64,000 nucleotides of DNA from Thermofilaceae archaeon (lineage in GTDB: Archaea > Thermoproteota > Thermoprotei > Thermofilales > Thermofilaceae): positions 74,986-138,985 of the forward strand of contig JAVYQJ010000002.1 of assembly GCA_038731975.1 (NCBI GenBank), in the 5' to 3' direction. Positions 876 through 34,465 of this stretch are shown piece by piece. Positions within the stretch are counted from its first letter, which is position 1. Each line of letters opens with the position of its first letter. The position numbers were made by a program, and so were the translations under genes. The notes beneath the pieces were generated by a model. The model saw only the letters and a program-made list of their open reading frames with translations, searched no databases and had not been told where the DNA came from.

Positions 876-3049
876 AATCGTAGAAGGGATCTCTTCGCAG
901 CGAGTTCAGCAGCAAGCTTGACGTAGAGACCTCTCACCTCCTCAAGCACCCTTTCTTTCTCTGCGCGATCAGCCGAGGCGAACTTCGATATCGCATCACT
1001 CATCCGCTCGTAGGCAGCTGTCGCCACCTCTAGCGCAGCTTCCACCTCAGCACGGTTCATCGCCTTGAATATGGATCTCGATCGGGATAGAGCCTCCTCG
1101 ATCGTTCCTGAAGAGATGATCTCGTAAACCTTTGCCACTTTACCGGGAGTCCATCGGAGAACCCTACCGACCCGCTGAACCATCTGCCTTACCTGCCCTG
1201 TACCCGAGAGTATGATGGCCACGTCTGCATCGGGCACGTCGATCCCTTCATCCAATACGGAGGTAGCTACAAGGACCCTTAGACTGCCGTTTTTAAAGCT
1301 CTCAAACGACCTCAATCGCTCCCCCTTCGGTGTTGAGCCAGTTATCAGTGCTGTTCGAGGCTCGACCTCTCGCACGGCTTCGTAAGCCTTCAAAGCCTGT
1401 TCAACGTACTGGCAAAACACTAGGATTTTCCCCTTTTCAGAGCGGACTATCGTCTTTAGAGCTTCTAGCTTCGCCTTTGCACACGAAGCTATCCGTATCA
1501 GTTCCGTTACACGCCTGTAGTCCGTGTCCGCTCCGCTAGCCTCCATGTACCTTGCAGTCTCCTCAGCGTCAAGCTGGACGGGGATGACCTCTACCTTGAG
1601 AGGGGCGAGTAAACCCCTGACAACCAACTCGTAGTATGACGTCGAGTACACGGGTTCGCCGCACATTTTGTAGATAAGCGCCTCATTCTTGTCGGACCTC
1701 TCCGGGGTCGCTGACAGTACAATCACGTATCTGGCCTTAGCTCGCAGAGCTATCTCCTTGAACGTGCGCGCTGGAACATGATGCCCCTCATCGAACACGA
1801 TAAAGCCAAACCTGCCGTATATTTCGGGGAGAGCTTTGACAGCGCTGTGGTAAGTAGCGACTGTGAGAGGCTCGATCCTCTTTTCGCCGCCCGCTAGAAT
1901 GCCCGCCCTCAAGCCTAGACACTCGTAAACGCGCCTTACCCACTGCTTTGCGAGCTCCACAGTAGTGACGCAAACAAGGGTGGGAACCTTCAGCTCGGCG
2001 ATTGCTGCGAGAGCCACAAAAGTTTTGCCAGCACCGGTCGGCATGACTATAGTGCCGCGGCGACCCGCCCGTCTCCACGCGTTAAGCGCCTCCTCTTGAA
2101 ACGAATACAACGTGAAGCGGGGGGTTGGTGAGAGAGAAGGGGTTAGGGGCCAGTTTATCTTCTCTACGACTTGAAGATTGGACTTCTCCAGGAATCTTGC
2201 GGCAATTGGAACTGCAAAGTAGGGAACTTTCACTACACGTCCCGAAAGATTCTTGACCAGCTGAAGCTTCGTAGGCACCAGTTCAATTCCGTTTGCGCTC
2301 ATCACCTGACGGTAGTAATCAACAGACAATTCTGATTGCAACCTGATGACCAAATCTTCGCCTACAGTCTTGGGCAGGATGATAAGAGCCCCTCTCATCC
2401 CCCACTCTACGAGCGTGGCCGCGTTGTCCTGCCCTATCAGCTGCTCAGCTCGCTGCTTCACAAAGTCCTGTTGCTTCGCGGTCAGCGCAGGATCCAGGTG
2501 CGCTAGCAACTCGAGTAGAGCGCTCGCAGATTTCTCGGGTTCCGCCCCCCACTCTACAACAGTTTCTAAAGCCGCTTCTATGTCCAGCTCGTAGTAGTTC
2601 ACGGGCCAGCACTCAATCGTTATCGTTCGCTTTCGCGCGTAGCGCCTTAATAGTTGCCAGCAGAAGGAGCAACCCTCAACTGGTAGTATAATTAACTTTC
2701 CATTATCTATTTCTCTATCTCTAATTTCTTTATCTTTACGTAAGAGCTCTATAATTAAATTCTCACTTTCACTATTGAATATTTCTTTAAATGTTTTCAG
2801 AGCTTCTGCCGAGTATTTTAAAAGTTCCTCAACGCTGGCATCCCATAACCTCTCTTGGGGATGCCACTTGCAGAATTTTTTCACCCTTTCCTTAAATCTT
2901 TCGATTTCGCTCCACGTACACTCCCTCTCCAGCACTTTCCCGCAAATCTTCACCCTGAAAACGCGTGTTGCTTCACGTGTCTGCATCCCTGCAGCCTCTA
3001 CGCACACAGTGAGAGTCTTATATAGGTAGTTTTCAGGCAGGTTTGACAA
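869..3049 (-). CDS. SF2 DNA helicase, XPB/Rad25-like core with ~320-aa N-terminal extension
   Basis: Helicase motifs: I MPTGAGKT, II FDEGHH, III SAT followed by PERSD (compare the XPB RED motif), VI QRVGRVLR. TTG start at 3049. The N-terminal third has no family I recognise and contains an AT-rich K/E/I-rich insert (nt ~2690-2830). Confidence 0.7.
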   Translation of the reverse strand: MSNLPENYLYKTLTVCVEAAGMQTREATRVFRVKICGKVLERECTWSEIERFKERVKKFCKWHPQERLWDASVEELLKYSAEALKTFKEIFNSESENLIIELLRKDKEIRDREIDNGKLIILPVEGCSFCWQLLRRYARKRTITIECWPVNYYELDIEAALETVVEWGAEPEKSASALLELLAHLDPALTAKQQDFVKQRAEQLIGQDNAATLVEWGMRGALIILPKTVGEDLVIRLQSELSVDYYRQVMSANGIELVPTKLQLVKNLSGRVVKVPYFAVPIAARFLEKSNLQVVEKINWPLTPSLSPTPRFTLYSFQEEALNAWRRAGRRGTIVMPTGAGKTFVALAAIAELKVPTLVCVTTVELAKQWVRRVYECLGLRAGILAGGEKRIEPLTVATYHSAVKALPEIYGRFGFIVFDEGHHVPARTFKEIALRAKARYVIVLSATPERSDKNEALIYKMCGEPVYSTSYYELVVRGLLAPLKVEVIPVQLDAEETARYMEASGADTDYRRVTELIRIASCAKAKLEALKTIVRSEKGKILVFCQYVEQALKAYEAVREVEPRTALITGSTPKGERLRSFESFKNGSLRVLVATSVLDEGIDVPDADVAIILSGTGQVRQMVQRVGRVLRWTPGKVAKVYEIISSGTIEEALSRSRSIFKAMNRAEVEAALEVATAAYERMSDAISKFASADRAEKERVLEEVRGLYVKLAAELAAKRSLLRFQ

Positions 3050-3762: not shown

Positions 3763-4788
3763 TCATAGTTTTGAGAATTCTTCATCTAATTTTTCAAATG
3801 TCCATCCCATTCTTCCTAAACCTAGATGCGCTGTTAAGCCTTGGTAAATGAATCCGTCAGCGTCTATATACGCTAGAAGTTCAGCCTTCTTTACACCCTC
3901 AACACGTAGCAATGCCTTATGCACGGCAGACAGTTTCTTAAGAGGTTCATCAACAATCAGGTAAATAGCCTCATCTTCCCCCTGTGGGATGAAAGAATCA
4001 ACAATGCTGGGCACCTCCGATAAAGATTTCAGAAGTAAGAGGGATACAATGGGTTCGGATGCTTCAACCCTGTAAAGGACAGCATTTTCCAGACGCTTAT
4101 GCTCTATGCAATTGCCTATCCACATCCTCCTGAGGTGTAGGCGGTAGTGGTAAGAGGCTAGCTGCTGGGAGAGCCCGTACGATCTCCCGATTTCGCTCAA
4201 ACTGGTAAAGCAGAACTCCTCCTTCATCCGCAAGATCATTAGGTCGACTTTATCTACATCTAGCTTAGGCTTTAGCCGCACATTTATGCCCGTACGTTTA
4301 AGCTCTGAAACCACCTGCGGTAGAGCGTTCCAAGAGGTCGATAACGCCCCCTCGCTAGAGTCCAGCAGCGCACCGGTTGATGGTTGAAACTTTACTTCCC
4401 ATTCCTTCACCCAAACATTTACGGGGGAAAAAGGGAAAATTTGCGCAAACCTTCTTTCCAACCCAACCGGCGGTGCAGCTTCGATCAGTAGTTTAACTCC
4501 CTCTCTGTCCCAGATCTTTACAGCGCACCGTATGAAAGGCAGTGGCTTTGACGCTAGCAACTCGTAGACCCTTTGATCGTACTTTAGCAATAGGTAGAGC
4601 GGAGAAAGCCCAATAGCGCGATAGTCGACCAGGTACCGCAGCCTAGCGTTCCTCGCCAGCTTCTTCACCCTCGCGCTTACGTAAGAGGGAGCTAAACCCG
4701 TAGCTCGAGAAATGTCGCTGTAGGTTTGAGAAAAAGTGATGCTCATAACAATCTTTCTCTCACTATCTGAAAGTGCGTCCCACAGCAT
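3763..4788 (-). CDS. Putative transcription regulator with two HTH + alpha/beta (Lrp/AsnC-like) modules in tandem
   Basis: HTH-like segments are YSDISRATGLAPSYVSARVKKL (N-terminal) and SLSEIGRSYGLSQQLASYHYRL (middle). Each is followed by a ~90-aa region with beta-alpha-beta character. The assignment is by pattern only. Confidence 0.5.
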   Translation of the reverse strand: MLWDALSDSERKIVMSITFSQTYSDISRATGLAPSYVSARVKKLARNARLRYLVDYRAIGLSPLYLLLKYDQRVYELLASKPLPFIRCAVKIWDREGVKLLIEAAPPVGLERRFAQIFPFSPVNVWVKEWEVKFQPSTGALLDSSEGALSTSWNALPQVVSELKRTGINVRLKPKLDVDKVDLMILRMKEEFCFTSLSEIGRSYGLSQQLASYHYRLHLRRMWIGNCIEHKRLENAVLYRVEASEPIVSLLLLKSLSEVPSIVDSFIPQGEDEAIYLIVDEPLKKLSAVHKALLRVEGVKKAELLAYIDADGFIYQGLTAHLGLGRMGWTFEKLDEEFSKL

Positions 4789-5083
4789 TCAATGGATCAT
4801 CAGGCCCGACCATTTATCCTTCTCTCACTCAACGAGATCCACGTCTGTTCGTAAGCCAAAGTGTTTTCCTAATACATCATAATCTTACTTTTACTATTTT
4901 TTAAGAACCTTTTATTTTCCTAAAATTTTTCACATTCGGTTATATTATGTATAAATTAAATAATTAAAAATAACAGTATTGTATCTAATTCATTCCACGG
5001 TTCAGATAAAGAGGGTTGCGCTACTACAGCCAAAGTCAAGGGTAAACATATATACACCCGCCTGAGGGTCTATAGCGACAGCC

Positions 5084-5218
5084 ATGAAAGCGCCTATGAT
5101 GCCGTACGAAGAGGAGGAGGAATGGGAGGAGGAAGAGGAAGAAGAGTGGGAAGAAGAGGAGGAAGAGGAGGAATGGGAGGAGGAATGGGAAGAGGAGGAG
5201 GAAGAGGAAGAGTGGTAA
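5084..5218 (+). CDS. Candidate micro-protein, 44 aa, poly-Glu punctuated by Trp
   Basis: ATG 5084 to TAA 5216-5218 encodes MKAPMMPYEEEEEWEEEEEEEWEEEEEEEEWEEEWEEEEEEEEEW. A TATA-like ATATATA at ~5048-5054 lies about 30 nt upstream of the ATG. The ORF is below the 60-aa cutoff of the supplied track. Coding status is uncertain because the DNA is a polypurine repeat. Confidence 0.35.
   Translation: MKAPMMPYEEEEEWEEEEEEEWEEEEEEEEWEEEWEEEEEEEEW
5108..5215. repeat. Polypurine (GAR)n low-complexity tract
   Basis: About 108 nt of GAA/GAG/GGA units on the + strand, interrupted only by the T of five TGG triplets. Confidence 0.9.
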
Positions 5219-5265
5219 GCCGCCGATTCGGAAAAACCTTATCATAGCCATTTAGTCTTTCTTTA

Positions 5266-6117
5266 TTAAATGAGTTCGGTCAGATCCCAAACCAGTTTAG
5301 CTATTTTAAGCAATGATCTGAATGCTGGAGCGTCACTGAACATGATGTTTAAATCTTCTAGTGCATTTGTTGCTTCAGGCCGCATACTTCTATTTAAAAA
5401 TGCTTCAACACTCCTTTTCTGATACTTTGCTATGATTTTCGCTGTATCGAGTAAACCTTCACTAGGCTGTAAGTAAGTCATCCTCTCGGCTTCATCCCCA
5501 ATTTCTTCGAGAAGTTTAGCAAAAAGGCGTGCATCAACCATGAATAGCCTTTCTTGGTCGCTTGCTTCAGGGGATCGAATCGTGCTTCTGATTAATCGCA
5601 CTGTGAGAAAGTAGAGCCGATCTAGCCTATCGTCGCGCGCACGAACGAGCTTTAGGGTCTCTTCGTCCCCTGCTTCCAGCGCTGCCGCCGCATCGACGTA
5701 CATGCTTCTGGAGATTGCATCCATTCGAGAAAGAACCCCCTTAACGTCGTACCCTTCACTGATGAAACACTGTAGCACAAGCCGATCGGGCCCCTCTTCA
5801 ACAACTTCTAAGCCAACCAGTAGATTTAAAAGATTATCCATTTTTTTCAATAACTTATCACTAGGTTGCTCAATCTCTATGACCTCATAACCTTCCAGGT
5901 AAGCCTTGATGATATCCCGTCCACTGCCACCAACTATCTGCTTTACCCTTACATCGGGAAAAACCTTCTCAACGGGCTTCAGAAGAAGCCCCTCCTCAAC
6001 AACCTCTATTGCTAACACGCTGCCCGGAGCCAACCTCCTACTCTCAATCCAACCCCTAGGTATGGACACGTACAAGCTATTACCCACCTTCACCAGCCTC
6101 CTGTAAACCCTAGTCAT
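5266..6117 (-). CDS. AbrB/SpoVT-domain + PhoU-like regulator
   Basis: The N-terminus VKVGNSLYVSIPRGWIESRRLAPGSVLAIEV is a swapped-hairpin AbrB-type motif. The remainder is helical with the D..R.DRLY pattern typical of PhoU repeats, an architecture common in archaeal phosphate uptake regulator homologues. Confidence 0.7.
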   Translation of the reverse strand: MTRVYRRLVKVGNSLYVSIPRGWIESRRLAPGSVLAIEVVEEGLLLKPVEKVFPDVRVKQIVGGSGRDIIKAYLEGYEVIEIEQPSDKLLKKMDNLLNLLVGLEVVEEGPDRLVLQCFISEGYDVKGVLSRMDAISRSMYVDAAAALEAGDEETLKLVRARDDRLDRLYFLTVRLIRSTIRSPEASDQERLFMVDARLFAKLLEEIGDEAERMTYLQPSEGLLDTAKIIAKYQKRSVEAFLNRSMRPEATNALEDLNIMFSDAPAFRSLLKIAKLVWDLTELI

Positions 6118-6265
6118 CGTTTAAGCCACCACAGCTACTGCTAAAACTGTCTTAAGTGTTTTAACACTAGAAAGCGTGCCACATATTCTCACAAATGCTT
6201 ATCCGTCGAAGAATCTCTTCTCACTCGCGTAAAACTTTAAACCCCCGACTTACTGCCTTTTCAGG

Positions 6266-6449
6266 GGCCCACCCCCGAAAGTCCGGGCGCGGGGACCAGC
6301 CCCGCGTAGCTCAGCGGTAGAGCGGCCGGCTGTAGTCGGCGCCCGCGGCGACATGGCCGTAAGGCCAAAGGATGAGAACGCGGCAGCCGGCAGGAAACCG
6401 CGCTTAAGTAGTAGAAACCGGTAGGCCCCCGGTTCGAAGGGGGTGGGCC
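6266..6449 (+). tRNA. Circularly permuted tRNA-Tyr(GUA) gene with two additional introns
   Basis: The 3' piece (T60-A73 plus CCA, 6282-6298) lies 1 nt upstream of C1 (6300). Acceptor strands CCCCGCG (6300-6306) and CGCGGGG (6288-6294) pair, giving C1-G72. D arm is GCTC/GAGC and the anticodon GTA is at 6332-6334. T stem is CCCGG 6428-6432 with CCGGG 6283-6287. Leader 6266-6275 pairs with trailer 6440-6449 around a 4-bp helix and two 3-nt bulges. A TATA-like AAAACTTTAAA lies at ~6229-6240. Confidence 0.8.
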
Positions 6450-6555
6450 TTTACGCTACCCTCTTCTAAAAATTCTTCCCAACCATACTAGAGAACTTTT
6501 GTTATATTACCTTAGTTTACCTACTCAGTTTGCTCAGTAAAGAATTATGCAAGCT

Positions 6556-8370
6556 TCAGTTATTTTCTAGATCGTAAACCTCTACTTCAGCTTCTCTTCC
6601 GCCTCGAGCGACTTTCAACGCGAGACTAGCAATTACTATGACTAGAACTACTGTGACAATGTAGTGCAAGGGGGCGTCGGCGTATAAGACGAAATACTCT
6701 CCGCCGCTCCTCACGTTTACGCGCTTACGCAACCCAATTGCTCCCACTTCGACATCGTACCAGCCGAGGGGCAAATCGAGAGTCACTACGCCCCTTTCAT
6801 CTGTGCACCCCTCAACTGAAACACTGCCCTTGACTTGCACGTTGACATGGGGAAGAGGTCTACCGAGGAAATCTACAACCTTTAAGTGAACCTTGCTCAC
6901 GTTAGCAATAATCGCGTAACTCACTCGCTGAGGCTCAACTTTCAGAACCCCGGAGGCCACGACAACCCCATCCTTGACCACCCAGTAGTTGTATAGGCCC
7001 GAGGGAACATCATTGAATGCAGCCCGCCCCTGAAGCTCCCTAGCCTCGTACCTTAAACCGTAAGCCTGCAGCAGAACGACATACCCCAGCATCCTTTCCC
7101 CCGTCGGATAGAGAACGACCACATCGAAATCGGTGAGGTCCGCTCTTAGGTTAACAACTTGATCGCCCCTCTCTAGAATCAACGATGTTCTCCCAACCTC
7201 CTTCTCCCCCACGTAAGCTGAGATGATGTAAGCGCCAGGAGGGATATCCTGGAAGGAGCACACGCCATTTAATAGCCGGCAGGTTACCCGGATGGAGTTG
7301 CTCGTTCCCGATACGATAACCGTAACGTTGCTCGCCGGTCTCCCCCCGCTATCGACTACGAACACATTAACGTTGTAGGCGTAAGAAGGTAACTCCAGCA
7401 GGCCGGGAAGGCCGTAAATGGTGAGCGTGTACACTTTTACCCCACCCCTGTACGCGTCCGCGCTCAATGTGCCGTTCGGCGCTATTGAAACTTCACGCTT
7501 GGAACCCGCAGGTATGTACACACCAGCGATAAAGTAGTCGAAGGGCCCTGGGTTCGACACTGTTACACTACACGTACCCAAAATCGTAGCTTCCTGTGGA
7601 GCGTACAGGGCTGGATTATCCGGGAACGCTCTTCCCACGATATCTCTAGCCCGGAGAGAGGCGTTAAAACGCTCGACACAGGCCGCCGGTAAATTGACGT
7701 AGAAGTAGAGCGGTTGCTGTGCCGGCTTAGCCGTTGAGTAGTAGAGGGTTCTCACGCGTACTTCTACGGAAGCTCTACGGACGATCTCGAGTAGGGAGTC
7801 GAGCTCGCCACCGGTTTGAAGCACCACGACATCCCATAGCGAAACTACGCCCATCGATGTTTGAATGCTCAGAAGCCTTTTCGATAGCACTGTAACCTTT
7901 AAGCCGGCCAGACCCTCCAATACATTAGCGTCGCTGCAGAGCGCCTCTACTAAGTGCCCCCATACTCTTTCACCACGCTCGCTTAGAGCGTAAGCGTGAG
8001 GCTTTGGCTCGCTGTAGTTGAACCTCACAGTTATCGTTCGCGGCCTCCACCCTAACCGAGTGAAGTTGACCCACACGAAATCCTCTATCAGGGTAACGCC
8101 ATCCTCGTAGCAGGCTGTGACGCGGGTCCCGTCGAAGAAGACCGCATAGGGCTTGTAGGGGGTGCTTGAATCGACCCTCACGACAACCTCCTTAGCATCG
8201 GGGTGCACTTGCAGGGTAAGCGTTGGCGCGTCGCTGAACTCCAAGAGATAGTACTTCACTTCTGTACCACTCAACCTCAGTGCCCTAGCTTCAACCACGA
8301 ACAGCTTGGGCTGTGCGCTGACAGCAACGGCTGCTAGCAGCGGTAACAGGAGACACGCGATAATCCTCAC
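6556..8370 (-). CDS. Secreted, C-terminally membrane-anchored beta-rich protein (carboxypeptidase-regulatory-like repeats)
   Basis: Signal peptide MRIIACLLLPLLAAVAVSAQ and C-terminal TM helix IVTVVLVIVIASLAL. Repeated motifs of the type PPGAYIISAYVG and LPLGWYDVEV are typical of CarboxypepD_reg-like beta-sandwiches. Confidence 0.6.
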   Translation of the reverse strand: MRIIACLLLPLLAAVAVSAQPKLFVVEARALRLSGTEVKYYLLEFSDAPTLTLQVHPDAKEVVVRVDSSTPYKPYAVFFDGTRVTACYEDGVTLIEDFVWVNFTRLGWRPRTITVRFNYSEPKPHAYALSERGERVWGHLVEALCSDANVLEGLAGLKVTVLSKRLLSIQTSMGVVSLWDVVVLQTGGELDSLLEIVRRASVEVRVRTLYYSTAKPAQQPLYFYVNLPAACVERFNASLRARDIVGRAFPDNPALYAPQEATILGTCSVTVSNPGPFDYFIAGVYIPAGSKREVSIAPNGTLSADAYRGGVKVYTLTIYGLPGLLELPSYAYNVNVFVVDSGGRPASNVTVIVSGTSNSIRVTCRLLNGVCSFQDIPPGAYIISAYVGEKEVGRTSLILERGDQVVNLRADLTDFDVVVLYPTGERMLGYVVLLQAYGLRYEARELQGRAAFNDVPSGLYNYWVVKDGVVVASGVLKVEPQRVSYAIIANVSKVHLKVVDFLGRPLPHVNVQVKGSVSVEGCTDERGVVTLDLPLGWYDVEVGAIGLRKRVNVRSGGEYFVLYADAPLHYIVTVVLVIVIASLALKVARGGREAEVEVYDLENN

Positions 8371-8494
8371 GAGCTAATGGTTGCGCCTTGAAGGTCTAAG
8401 GGTAGCACGCAACTTTTTCCCGCTAATAGGAGGCTGTTACGCGGAGACTACGGTAGCAAAAACCTTAAGCGTGATCCGCACACTACGTTTTTCG

Positions 8495-8824
8495 ATGAGC
8501 GAAAGAGAGGGGCCGAGCGCGATCCTAGTGGTCATCACAGTCGTAGCTTTCGCCTTCCTAGCCAGTGTATGGGTGCTTACAAGTGGGTTCAGCGAAAATC
8601 CCCCCTATCCACCCCTAATCTCCCGGATACTCCCTCTAACCCTAACTACCGCAGCCGTGCTAGCATCGATTTTCGCTTACAATCTGGCTAAGGATGAGGA
8701 GCCGGAGTGGAGCGTAAAACTGGGTCAAAGGCTTCAGTACAAAGTCATAGAGGGGGCGGCGATCGCCTGCATAATACTTTCGCTAGTGTTCACCGTCCTG
8801 ATCGTAACAACCTACTTTCTGTAG
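8495..8824 (+). CDS. Small integral membrane protein (3 predicted TM helices)
   Basis: The internal ATG at 8495 (MSEREGPSAILVVITVVAFAFLAS...) is preferred over the 8381 start. AAAAACCTTAAG at ~8457-8468 lies about 30 nt upstream. Confidence 0.5.
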   Translation: MSEREGPSAILVVITVVAFAFLASVWVLTSGFSENPPYPPLISRILPLTLTTAAVLASIFAYNLAKDEEPEWSVKLGQRLQYKVIEGAAIACIILSLVFTVLIVTTYFL

Positions 8825-8827
8825 TCG

Positions 8828-10447
8828 CTACTCTAGGAGGCTCCTGAGAGCTTTAACCTCCTCCTCCCGCCTTGCGAGCTCCTCCTTCAACCGCCTGTTC
8901 TCATGTTCCAGCTCCTTTACGCGGGCCTCCAACTCGCTCAGACGCGCTAACTTGCGGGTTAGCTCCTCCTCCCTTGATTTCAATTCAGCCTCTCTCGCCT
9001 CCAACCTCTCTCTCAACTCGTTGAGAAGACCCTCCTTAGTTAAGAGAGAGCGGTGGTAACCGATCAGCTCTCGCTCCTTATCAAGTAACCTCTTTTCCCA
9101 CTCCTTCAGCTTAGCCTCAAGCTCGCCAAGCTCTTGGAGAGGCCTCAGTTTTGCATCAATGTCTGCGCGCTCTCTCTTCAATGCCTCCTCCCACTCCCTA
9201 AGCTTCTTCTCTCTTTCTTCGATCTCTCGTCTTAAGAATTCATATCTATTAAGGAGTTTATTTAATCTATTTTCACGCTCTGCTAATTCTTTCTCCCATT
9301 CTGTTAGTTTAATTAATTTCTCATCGATAGCTCTTTCTCTAGCCCTAATATCGTCTTCTATTTTTCTCAATTTTTCTTCCCATGATCTAAGTCTATTTTC
9401 CTCATCTTTTAGTTTAGCTTCCCATTCGGAAAACCGACGTCGAGCTTCATTGATTCTCTCGTTTTCCGCAATAAGTGACGTTCTAAAGCTTTCTAATTCA
9501 GCTCTTTTTATATTTATTTCATTAAGTTCATCATGTAATTTATTTAATGTTTTAATCATTTCCTGAATTTCTTGAATTAAATTTAACTTATTTGCTATAT
9601 CGTTTCCTATGTTACTTATCATTTGGGATATTTCTAAAATTTTATAATGTAGACTTTTTAATTCATTTTCCTTATTAATTAATTGTTCATCTAGTAATTT
9701 TAAATTCTTTTCTTTCTCTCTCAATTCTTGCTCTTTTTGATTTAACATTTTTTCTCGCTCATCGAGTGATTGCACTCTCGCAGCGGCTTCGGCGTACTCA
9801 GATACAGCCTTATTGTACTTCTCTGCTGCCTCCACTAGAGCCCGTAAGCTGTCAATAAACATTTCCTTCCTTTCTTTCTCTATAGCTTTCAGCTCTTCAA
9901 TAGTAGTTTTAAAATAATTTAAAAATTCAGTTTCTCTTTCTTTATTTATTTTCTCAAATTCGGAAATGATGTTTTTTAAATTGTTTATGAATTCAGTTTC
10001 CCTTTCTCCACTTACTTTCTCGAATTCTGATATGATATTTTTGAGCTGTTCGAGTAATTCGTTTCCAGATTTTATAGCTGGGATCAATTGTTCATTTAAT
10101 GCTTCTAAACTTTTTGATAAATCATTTGATATTGTCGAAAGCTCTGTTATCATAGCTTCAAGCCTGGTGTTGGACTCTGCGAGCTTGGCAACGGAATCTT
10201 CGAGCTTTGCTCGTGAACCCTCGAGTTCGCTTCTTTGCCTTTGGAGCAGATCCACGAGATCCGCTAGTATAGCGCGCTGCTCATCCAGTAATGCTATGAT
10301 TTGAGCTTGAAGCGTTTTGAGCGATTCGATTACTCTACTGCTCACGGTATCTGTCTGTTTGGTCATTAGAGCTGTGAGCTCCTTGCTTAACTGCTCTATT
10401 CTGTTCATCAGCTCGGTTGCGTCTACTTCCCGTCTTCGGCCCAGCAT
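8828..10447 (-). CDS. Long coiled-coil protein (539 aa, K/E/L/N-rich)
   Basis: Heptad-like sequence throughout. The C-terminal half carries recurring xEWExKL units (SEWEAKL, SWEEKL, TEWEKEL, REWEEAL, KEWEKRL). TATA-like GATAATTAATAT lies about 27 nt upstream of the ATG. Confidence 0.7.
   Translation of the reverse strand: MLGRRREVDATELMNRIEQLSKELTALMTKQTDTVSSRVIESLKTLQAQIIALLDEQRAILADLVDLLQRQRSELEGSRAKLEDSVAKLAESNTRLEAMITELSTISNDLSKSLEALNEQLIPAIKSGNELLEQLKNIISEFEKVSGERETEFINNLKNIISEFEKINKERETEFLNYFKTTIEELKAIEKERKEMFIDSLRALVEAAEKYNKAVSEYAEAAARVQSLDEREKMLNQKEQELREKEKNLKLLDEQLINKENELKSLHYKILEISQMISNIGNDIANKLNLIQEIQEMIKTLNKLHDELNEINIKRAELESFRTSLIAENERINEARRRFSEWEAKLKDEENRLRSWEEKLRKIEDDIRARERAIDEKLIKLTEWEKELAERENRLNKLLNRYEFLRREIEEREKKLREWEEALKRERADIDAKLRPLQELGELEAKLKEWEKRLLDKERELIGYHRSLLTKEGLLNELRERLEAREAELKSREEELTRKLARLSELEARVKELEHENRRLKEELARREEEVKALRSLLE
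9914..10045 (-). repeat. Tandem 66-nt (22-aa) duplication inside the coiled-coil gene
   Basis: The protein repeats are LKNIISEFEKVSGERETEFINN and LKNIISEFEKINKERETEFLNY. The corresponding DNA copies are visibly similar. Confidence 0.85.
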
Positions 10448-17488: not shown

Positions 17489-17592
17489 GGGCCGGTAGCT
17501 CAGACTGGGAGAGCGCCCGCTTCGCAAGCTCGACTCAAATGAGCGGCCGAGATCGCGGGAGGTCCCGGGTTCAAGTCCCGGCCGGTCCACCA
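17489..17592 (+). tRNA. tRNA-Ala(CGC) with 27-nt intron at 37/38, CCA encoded
   Basis: Acceptor GGGCCGG/CCGGTCC includes the G3:U70 Ala identity pair. Anticodon loop is TTCGCA followed by the intron 17527-17553. The BHB is formed by TTCG/CGAG and GCTC/GAGC. T arm is CCGGG TTCAAGT CCCGG. Confidence 0.9.
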
Positions 17593-34365: not shown

Positions 34366-34465
34366 TGGTGGACCGGCCGGGACTTGAACCCGGGACCTCC
34401 CGCGCTCTTGGCCACTGCCACTTGACTTGCAAGGCGGACGCTCTCCCAGCCTGAGCTACCGGCCC
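34366..34465 (-). tRNA. tRNA-Ala(UGC) with ~23-nt intron in the anticodon loop, CCA encoded
   Basis: The reverse complement is GGGCCGGTAGCTCAGGCTGGGAGAGCGTCCGCCTTGCA[intron]GCGGGAGGTCCCGGGTTCAAGTCCCGGCCGGTCCACCA. It has the G3:U70 pair and its 3' half is identical to the tRNA-Ala(CGC) gene. Confidence 0.9.

Follow-up and report, generated by a model that had tools for sequence, protein, structure and literature searches.

A 64,000-nucleotide (nt) stretch from the metagenome-assembled genome (MAG) of an uncultured Thermofilaceae archaeon (GenBank assembly GCA_038731975.1, contig JAVYQJ010000002.1, positions 74,986 to 138,985), referred to here in its entirety as the window, encodes a circularly permuted tRNA-Tyr(GUA) at positions 6263 to 6452 of its forward (+) strand, with the 3′ piece of the tRNA placed before the 5′ piece (Table 1). 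The 3′ piece ends in a genomically encoded CCA (ACCA, 6295–6298) and is followed, after a single G, by C1 of the 5′ half, which extends through A59 (6300–6438) over 139 nt, including an insert of 81 nt in the anticodon loop. The mature tRNA is predicted to comprise 6300–6335, 6417–6438, and 6282–6298 in that order, for a total of 75 nt, with the anticodon loop CUGUAGA, a G27·U43 pair, an uninterrupted variable loop (AGGCC), a C1–G72 pair (C6300–G6294), and A73. ARAGORN recognizes this re-ordered, spliced sequence as a tRNA-Tyr(gta) of 75 nt with a normal cloverleaf. A first-pass annotation of the window had proposed the permuted tRNA-Tyr(GUA) with its 3′ piece first, the C1–G72 pair, A73, the encoded CCA, and the 1-nt spacer; the sequences and coordinates it quoted are all correct on re-reading of positions 6100–6640, and the architecture, the ARAGORN call, and the conservation of the arrangement in 29 loci described below bear out the permutation.

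That annotation had also anticipated that standard tRNA finders would miss the gene. ARAGORN returns 0 genes from positions 6200–6500 in native order, and the Rfam tRNA model fails to match the native-order locus both in a search of the window at gathering thresholds and in a permissive search of positions 6000–6700. In the permissive search, the acceptor and D arm give one weak match, to the tRNA-like YrlA family; no tRNA, C/D-box, or other family was found in that interval. We scanned both strands of the window for a CCA followed, after a gap of 0–30 nt, by 7 bases fully complementary to the 7 that precede N73, with a downstream T-stem partner and TTCRA. This generic scan returns the present locus as its sole match, and the 64-kb window contains neither a second tRNA-Tyr nor a further copy of the exons. 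Elsewhere in the window, ARAGORN reports one tRNA-like gene and Rfam, at gathering thresholds, two.

We searched a genome collection for ACCA, a short gap, and a tRNA-Tyr 5′ half. This pattern matched 107 loci; in five genomes beyond that of the window, the 7 bases before ACCA are complementary to the acceptor strand that follows, and all five are titled Thermofilales, Thermofilaceae, or Thermofilum and share the architecture of the window gene. With 23 loci from a metagenome scan for the permuted junction, these provide 28 further permuted tRNA-Tyr loci, or 29 including the window, which fall into eight sequence classes, A to H, with anticodon-loop inserts of 59 to 81 nt. Class A consists of the window, L008, and L117, and class B of L104 and L039; the inserts of classes C–H are 59–61 nt long. 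The 3′ exon piece is identical in 29 of 29 loci, as the search patterns required, and exon positions outside the pattern-fixed parts are identical or nearly so. The spacer between CCA and C1 measures 1 nt (G), 2 nt (GG, AG, or CG), or up to 8–10 nt (e.g., CGCGCATG and CGGGTGCTAC), which suggests that end processing tolerates “acceptor loops” of different sizes. A gene for a PhoU-like protein, the tRNA-Tyr gene, and a gene for a 604-residue protein retain this order in classes A–E and G, with flanking-protein identities of 40–60% (≈90% to L008 and L117), and this conserved synteny points to vertical inheritance of the locus within the Thermofilaceae. The PhoU-like protein is found on contig JAVYOS010000002.1 of assembly GCA_038734025.1, which NCBI labels “Thermofilaceae archaeon.” Thermofilum pendens Hrk5, the source of the published archaeal precedent, is not among the genome-collection matches, either because its D arm or acceptor differs from the pattern or because this stretch lies outside the collection; likewise, with the PhoU-like neighbor as a guide, no Hrk5 orthologue turned up on any Mb-sized chromosome.

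The ends of the predicted transcript form a bulge-helix-bulge (BHB) motif. A BHB scanner reports a strict hBHBh′ arrangement, in which all four pairs of the central helix (H) are formed, the inner helix (h) is the 5-bp T stem, and the outer helix (h′), made from leader and trailer, extends over 13 bp; this is the top-scoring BHB of the locus. The strict motif formed by leader and trailer had been recognized in the first-pass annotation over a shorter span, with leader GGCCCACCCC (6266–6275) and trailer GGGGTGGGCC (6440–6449), and is upheld here by the scanner and by covariation, the outer helix growing by inclusion of 6263–6265 and 6450–6452. The archaeal splicing endonuclease cuts after the second nucleotide of a bulge, and by this rule, cleavage would occur after G6281 and A6438; with A59 then ligated to U60, the T loop UUCGAAU would be restored. 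The BHB geometry is thus in accord with the 59/60 junction and the seven-nucleotide T loop (TTCGAAT) that had been suggested.

Sequence comparison provides strong evidence that leader and trailer pair within a single RNA and that the resulting helix is kept by selection. When the two 30-nt flanks of the window gene are shuffled 5000 times, the longest helix obtained is 12 bp, versus 14 bp observed, and 25 of 25 distinct leader/trailer contexts, which represent at least nine different sequences, form a helix of 10–16 bp. The RNAalifold consensus of 13 representatives contains the outer helix, a bulge, a 4-bp helix, a second bulge, and the T stem, with double compensatory changes at 12 of the 13 outer-helix pairs. 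The fraction of paired cells (91.3%) and the covariation score (0.475) compare with 74.0% and 0.180 in column shuffles, and in neither case do any of 500 shuffles reach the observed value; sliding the registers by 1–3 columns reduces the covariation score to ≤0.247. The covariation of leader and trailer supports their probable co-transcription and processing through the BHB. In the central helix, homologues have CGAA, TGAA, CGAG, CGGG, CGTG, or GGAA, with three or four of the four pairs kept.

Among the representatives listed, the junction BHB is ranked first by the scanner in every class except F. The register of the scanner is fixed and that of class F is shifted, and the motif is consequently missed there; an alignment-based fold recovers it in all classes, E and F included. 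The junction motifs are nonetheless relaxed in these two lineages. Class E sequences (L109, L115, L118, L119, L125, and L130) have a 4-nt leader-side bulge (CGAG-CAU↓U, with the arrow at a tentative cut), and class F sequences (L110–L131) form a 13–14-bp outer helix only with a 1-nt shift on the trailer side, such that two trailer nucleotides precede the helix instead of one. The central helix of class F retains 3 of 4 pairs.

A scan for sigma-70 promoters and intrinsic terminators does not apply to archaea and returned nothing relevant, and the promoter was instead read directly from the sequence. A putative box that resembles a B recognition element (BRE) and TATA element lies ≈20 nt upstream of the point where the leader helix begins, at −71 to −56 relative to C1, and the predicted transcript start falls near the first base of that helix. 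An A/T box is found 45–54 nt upstream of T60 in the class A–E homologues, and inspection by eye shows comparable boxes in classes F–H. In form, the window box resembles the crenarchaeal tRNA promoters collected in the supplement of PMC3218864, and the promoter of the T. pendens Hrk5 tRNA-Tyr is reported at −65 (PMC3218864). The 1-nt gap between the two tRNA pieces leaves no room for a second promoter.

Table 1. Features of the permuted tRNA-Tyr locus in window coordinates; arrows mark predicted cuts.
Feature	Position	Strand	Sequence and remarks
BRE/TATA-like promoter box (putative)	6229–6244	+	GTAAAACTTTAAACCC; read directly
Leader strand of outer helix (h′)	6263–6275	+	AGGGGCCCACCCC; pairs with trailer 6440–6452, 13 bp
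Central helix H, 3′ strand	6276–6279	+	CGAA; 4/4 pairs with TTCG 6433–6436
Leader-side bulge, 3 nt	6280–6282	+	A-G↓T; predicted cut after G6281; T6282 (T60) is the first base kept
3′ exon piece, 17 nt	6282–6298	+	TCCGGGCGCGGGGACCA; T60, T-stem CCGGG (61–65), acceptor CGCGGGG (66–72), A73, CCA
Spacer between A76 and C1, 1 nt	6299–6299	+	G; read from sequence
5′ exon 1, C1 to G37	6300–6335	+	Acceptor 5′ strand, D arm, GCCGG, loop CUGUAG; GTA at 6332–6334
Inner part of insert, 60 nt	6336–6395	+	Homologous to the canonical 59–61-nt intron of relatives (MAFFT)
Insert h′, 4 bp	6337–6340 / 6386–6389	+	CGGC / GCCG
Insert helix P1	6343–6347 / 6379–6383	+	CCGCG / CGCGG; covarying
Insert hairpin	6355–6366	+	GGCC-GUAA-GGCC
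First 3′ half-site	6390–6393, 6394–6396	+	GCAG, GA↓A; HBh′ half-motif: H 4/4, h′ 4 bp, h 0
21-nt block at insert 3′ end	6396–6416	+	Classes A and B only; a gap in all other classes (MAFFT)
Second 3′ half-site	6411–6414, 6415–6417	+	GUAG, AA↓A; hBH half-motif: H 4/4, h 5 bp, h′ 0
Exon 2, A38 to A59	6417–6438	+	CCGGU (39–43), variable loop AGGCC (44–48), CCCGG (49–53), TTCGAA (54–59)
Trailer-side bulge, 3 nt	6437–6439	+	A-A↓G; predicted cut after A6438 (A59)
Trailer strand of outer helix	6440–6452	+	GGGGTGGGCCTTT; pairs with leader 6263–6275
PhoU-like protein gene, 283 residues	5266–6117	−	Flanks tRNA-Tyr

We next consider where the extra sequence is inserted. Comparison of homologues gives good support to a placement of all 81 nt (6336–6416) between G37 (6335) and A38 (6417), with an uninterrupted variable region. 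The homologues conform to the consensus CTGTAG-insert-A-CCGG(Y)-(A/G)GGNC-CCCGG-TTC(G/A)AA, and the insert itself holds a second, upstream CCGG preceded by (C/T)AG. In 20 of 20 distinct homologous sequences, the downstream A-CCGGY copy both pairs 5/5 with positions 27–31 and continues directly into AGGCC-CCCGG-TTCGAA. Class F has U at position 27; there, the downstream copy changes to CCGGA (U27–A43) and the upstream copy stays CCGGC and is mismatched, as it is in L021, to give position-27 mismatches in 7 of the 20 distinct sequences in total. In relatives with short inserts (59–61 nt), the upstream CCGG supplies the h′ strand and the first H base of one canonical BHB at 37/38; that of L118 is strict (H, CUGU/GCGG, 4/4; h, 5 bp; h′, 4 bp) and removes 59 nt, the length published for the single 37/38 intron of T. 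pendens (PMC3978253). Helix P1 of the insert covaries, with GC replaced by AU in five sequences and CG by GC in two, as judged from an RNAalifold analysis of the anticodon arm and insert that we used for this purpose only, since the underlying MAFFT alignment set the upstream copy of classes A and B against the short-class 3′ exon and its consensus could not address the BHB. The near invariance of GCGG upstream of the first CCGG is accounted for by its position in this covarying helix.

Several other registers were tried and set aside. Introns at 38/39 or within the 3′ strand of the anticodon stem place the h helix out of register when checked by hand, and a free-standing 21-nt intron with a separate 5′ site (6395↓6396 and 6416↓6417, or shifted by one) would require GCAG and GUAG to pair, which they do not. 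A brute-force search that passed 620 splice combinations through ARAGORN had no discriminating power, with almost all products called as tRNAs and the anticodon call dependent on the borders, and was replaced by BHB geometry and comparative analysis.

How the insert is removed is less clear-cut in the window than in its relatives. At the upstream site (site 1), the AACCGCG that follows GCAG-GA↓A cannot form h; at the downstream site (site 2), CCGGU (6418–6422) forms a 5-bp h, with no h′. In the sister class B (L104 and L039, from Thermofilaceae MAGs), two complete nested BHBs occupy the same 37/38 site: the first (H, 3/4; h, 5 bp; h′, 8 bp) removes 57 nt and the second, which forms after the first has been removed (H, 3/4; h, 5 bp; h′, 5–6 bp), removes 21 nt. 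The second h′ differs between the two sequences yet stays paired (ccggug/ugucgg in L104 versus ccggu/gccgg in L039), and the nested BHBs suggest that the 21-nt block was probably, in the ancestor, a separately spliced unit. We note that the class B insert carries three copies of ACCGGT. The window intron would accordingly be of a relaxed or nested kind, removed as 60 and then 21 nt or by one relaxed pair of cuts, and the count of two introns given in the first-pass annotation may survive as a nested 60 + 21 nt, both at 37/38, which is clear in L104 and L039 and half-supported in the window.

By reading, the 21-nt block looks as if the splice junction had been duplicated in tandem and the copy had since decayed (GCAG-GA-A-ACCGCG versus GUAG-AA-A-CCGGU). 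We tentatively propose, as a conjecture that we hold to be somewhat improbable as a whole, that in classes A and B a 21-nt tandem duplication of the 3′ splice junction enlarged the ancestral canonical intron of an already permuted tRNA-Tyr, creating a nested intron that re-uses the 5′ site, in a gene whose permutation is old and vertically inherited. If so, maturation would take either three endonuclease and ligase rounds (at the junction, the inner 37/38 site, and the outer 37/38 site) or a conformational switch between two half-BHBs; the locus would offer a natural snapshot of archaeal tRNA introns that lengthen and multiply by splice-site duplication, and the permutation would be an old vertical trait of the Thermofilaceae and not a recent lateral acquisition. 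Sequential archaeal tRNA introns, where one must leave before the next BHB can form, are known (PMC8450103), and a broad-specificity α2β2 endonuclease that accepts relaxed motifs is reported for T. pendens (PMC3978253).

These elements can be assembled into a candidate maturation pathway. One promoter (6229–6244) would drive a transcript that contains, in order, the leader, T60–A76 with CCA, G, C1–G37, the 81-nt insert, A38–A59, and the trailer. A splicing endonuclease, possibly of the broad-specificity α2β2 type of T. pendens, and an RtcB-type ligase would act both at the junction and at the insert. Ligation at the junction would yield a circular intermediate of the kind shown experimentally only in Cyanidioschyzon merolae, which RNase P would open 5′ of C1; the extra G after CCA would then be trimmed, or CCAG would be removed by tRNase Z and CCA re-added. 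At the insert, the 5′ cut may be set by the HBh′ half-motif (CUGU/GCAG + CGGC/GCCG) and the 3′ cut by the hBH half-motif (CUGU/GUAG + GCCGG/CCGGU), with the 60 and then the 21 nt removed in turn from 37/38, or with a single relaxed step for the whole insert. Removal would join G37 to A6417, with a predicted mature sequence of CUGUAG joined to ACCGGUAGGCC; with A38 and U43 as read here, the mature stretch would be CUGUAGACCGGUAGGCC. Were the 60 nt removed first, the intermediate would read CUGUAG joined to AACCGCGCUUAAG.

The first-pass annotation had the total of 81 extra nucleotides right and divided them differently, into an intron of ≈50 nt at 37/38 (6336–6385) and one of ≈31 nt in the variable region (6393–6423), with CCGGC at 6387–6391 as the 3′ strand of the anticodon stem and the second intron excised through a BHB whose central helix pairs CCGG 6387–6390 with CCGG 6418–6421. 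This division has some appeal: a BHB-like CUGU/GCGG + CA↓G + CCGGC does exist (H, 4/4; h, 5 bp), GCGGCAGCCGG is nearly invariant among homologues, and the 75-nt product is also called tRNA-Tyr(gta) by ARAGORN, now with a Watson–Crick G27–C43 pair. The resulting loop, however, would be CUGUAGG with G38, whereas the 53 ordinary archaeal tRNA-Tyr(GUA) genes compared have A (46), C (6), or T (1) at position 38 and never G (that of Vulcanisaeta reads GCCGG-CTGTAGA-CCGGC-AGGTC), and in the minimum free energy (MFE) fold, C32–G38 and U33–G37 would close the anticodon loop to three bases. The 7/20 mismatches of the first CCGGN copy at position 27, set against a second copy that always pairs and covaries, speak against it as well, as does a “second intron” that would measure only 10–11 nt in relatives; P1 suffices to explain the conserved GCGG, and every homologue runs unbroken from CCGGU through AGGCC into the T stem, which argues against any intron in the variable region. 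The AGG repeat that had made the earlier boundaries ambiguous is lacking after the first copy in L104 and L039, which have the same 21-nt block. Finally, the proposed CCGG/CCGG helix lacks flanking helices on hand inspection and does not figure in the scanner listing, and the arrangement gives the least stable fold tested (−31.2 kcal/mol), with no h′ helix. We therefore consider this division highly unlikely and favor the placement of the entire insert at 37/38. Within that placement, the choice between nested removal and removal in one step is much closer, and we put the latter, a variant of the same pathway, only slightly below even odds. It holds that the 81 nt are a single relaxed intron of the bulge-helix-loop type, cut at G37↓U6336 and A6416↓A6417, with the upstream GCAG-GA↓A a decayed, unused duplicate and no intermediate that contains the 21 nt. 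Only site 2, with H at 4/4 and h at 5 bp, has an intact CCGGU after it, no h is formed in register at the upstream site (h = 0), the 21 nt that would remain after a first step lack h′ in both the window and L008, and relaxed-motif α2β2 endonucleases are reported for T. pendens (PMC3978253). Against one-step removal, no h′ flanks the 5′ bulge of site 2 (CGGC/GCCG, the sole h′, belongs to the site 1 conformer), and class B possesses two complete nested BHBs, of 57 and then 21 nt, the second with a covarying h′.

We also considered that the locus is a nonfunctional relic, either a rearranged tRNA gene or the 3′ fragment left by an integrating element, with the real tRNA-Tyr elsewhere in the genome. 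In favor of this reading, our evidence covers 64 kb of the genome and comes from sequence, and standard finders do not call the locus. A relic is nevertheless hard to reconcile with an arrangement kept in 29 loci and eight classes between syntenic flanks at 40–60% protein identity, with preserved exons alongside compensatory substitutions in leader and trailer, or with a promoter box at constant distance; T. pendens, moreover, has no tRNA-Tyr besides the permuted gene (PMC3218864), and a 3′ piece located 1 nt from C1 is not the geometry of an att-site duplicate. We regard this explanation as barely credible and conclude that the permuted tRNA-Tyr gene is real, conserved, and almost certainly functional. 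For the reading as a whole, namely a functional permuted tRNA-Tyr(GUA) at window positions 6229–6452 (+) that shares the T. pendens architecture and is orthologous to the genes of other Thermofilaceae, we estimate a probability of about 0.88. What counts against it is the following. The CCA-spacer-C1 architecture and the start of the D arm were built into both search patterns, and the acceptor sequence into the one used on metagenomes, so that exon identity across loci is partly a matter of construction. The insert of the window shows no single strict hBHBh′ at 37/38, only two half-motifs that share CUGU. In its MFE fold (−38.8 kcal/mol), the arm forms the continuous helix GCCGGCUGU/GCAGCCGGC; folds with enforced motifs reach −35.3 (site 1), −34.4 (site 2), and −31.2 kcal/mol (the earlier division), and energies that lie within ≈8 kcal/mol do not pick splice sites. 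The trailer is followed by no clear oligo-T terminator, only TTT, and transcription, the circular intermediate, the cut positions, and the order of steps are all inferred.

The precedent cited in the first-pass annotation, the permuted tRNA-Tyr of T. pendens, is confirmed by the literature (PMC3218864 and PMC3978253). In strain Hrk5 (NC_008698, positions 892,725–892,859), that gene joins a 17-nt 3′ half to a 117-nt 5′ half at 59/60, with a 1-nt spacer, an encoded CCA, and one 37/38 intron, and is the single-copy and only tRNA-Tyr gene (PMC3218864; Chan, Cozen & Lowe 2011); Soma 2014 lists it as type IV with an intron of 59 nt (PMC3978253). Set beside this published description, the window gene agrees in isotype and anticodon, in the 17-nt 3′ half upstream on the same strand, in the 59/60 junction, 1-nt spacer, CCA, and 37/38 intron, and in promoter position (≈65 nt upstream of C1), and has every sequence-level defining feature of a T. 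pendens-type permuted tRNA-Tyr. The two differ in the length of the insert (81 versus 59 nt, by the extra 21-nt block), in the 5′ half (139 versus 117 nt), and in the host, here an uncultured Thermofilaceae MAG. The window junction is a strict hBHBh′, whereas those of T. pendens are described as partly relaxed (PMC3978253), and the window flanks are conserved across the family, whereas those of Hrk5 are described as foreign-looking (PMC3218864). According to Soma 2014, no circular intermediate is known from experiment for any archaeon, T. pendens included (PMC3978253).

More distant parallels exist. As far as they are portrayed in PMC3978253, the permuted tRNA genes of C. merolae also place the 3′ half first, have a terminal BHB and a 59/60 junction, and in some cases carry an intron with an independent BHB; they differ in being eukaryotic nuclear genes with longer spacers, no encoded CCA, and unrelated isotypes and sequences, and, according to the same account, their circular intermediate has been shown experimentally, whereas that of the window gene is a prediction. 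The closely spaced multi-intron tRNAs of Thermoproteales (PMC8450103; also studied by Sugahara and Fujishima, as cited in PMC4033280) resemble the nested 57 + 21 nt of L104 and L039, and possibly a 60 + 21 nt in the window. Unlike these, both nested units here would use the same 5′ site (G37↓), the second unit is an apparent duplicate of the 3′ junction and not an intron inserted at a fresh position, and the gene is permuted.

The later literature that we found contains no archaeal permuted tRNA beyond the T. pendens example, and a specialist is not surprised by a permuted tRNA-Tyr in the Thermofilaceae. The class itself is thus already known; what is new is the family-wide distribution with synteny and covariation, the apparent duplication of a splice junction, and a third intron in L129 (see below). 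Permuted tRNA genes are rare and invisible to routine annotation, with the result that genomes that carry them seem to lack an essential tRNA-Tyr, and the tRNA complements of Thermofilaceae MAGs call for a permuted-aware search, the permuted tRNA-Tyr being a conserved, syntenic feature of many lineages of this family. The natural variation in spacer, bulge size, intron nesting, and D-stem intron constitutes a comparative set for the substrate rules of the crenarchaeal splicing endonuclease, and the family is equally suited to asking how RNase P and the 3′-end enzymes handle a 1-nt spacer.

A number of smaller observations concern the intron and its surroundings. The intron keeps an invariant CAGCCGG (window 6384–6390; classes A–F) that is complementary to tRNA positions 28–34 and contributes to the continuous helix of the MFE fold. 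Between P1 and P2, it also keeps an asymmetric internal loop with GA opposite (G/A)AUGA(A/G) (within 6348–6378; classes A–F). The loop looks like a kink turn, but a kink-turn or C/D-box reading was discarded, given 2 × 7 nt in a noncanonical geometry and AA in one homologue, and the loop matches no Rfam family. The intron may do more than splice.

The two other tRNA genes of the window, at 17489–17589 (+) and 34369–34465 (−), are ordinary tRNA-Ala genes with G3·U70, the anticodons CGC and UGC, and a canonical intron in the anticodon loop; ARAGORN mislabels the copy at 34369–34465 (−) as tRNA-??? with a four-base anticodon, “caag.” Around the permuted gene, positions 3763–10447 encode a 341-residue helix-turn-helix protein, the 283-residue PhoU-like protein, tRNA-Tyr, and proteins of 604 and 539 residues, an order kept in most Thermofilaceae classes. 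Finally, the metagenome locus L129 (Ga0180302_10027526, match 1453–1476 (+)) has an additional 22-nt intron in the D stem, with cuts at GGTTAG↓AGCGGCTAGTAGCCGCGGCCAC↓AGC and a BHB composed of H GGUU/GGCC (4/4) and a 6-bp h′ (GCGGCU/AGCCGC). Together with its 59-nt intron at 37/38 and its junction BHB, L129 thus accommodates three separate BHBs in one permuted gene.

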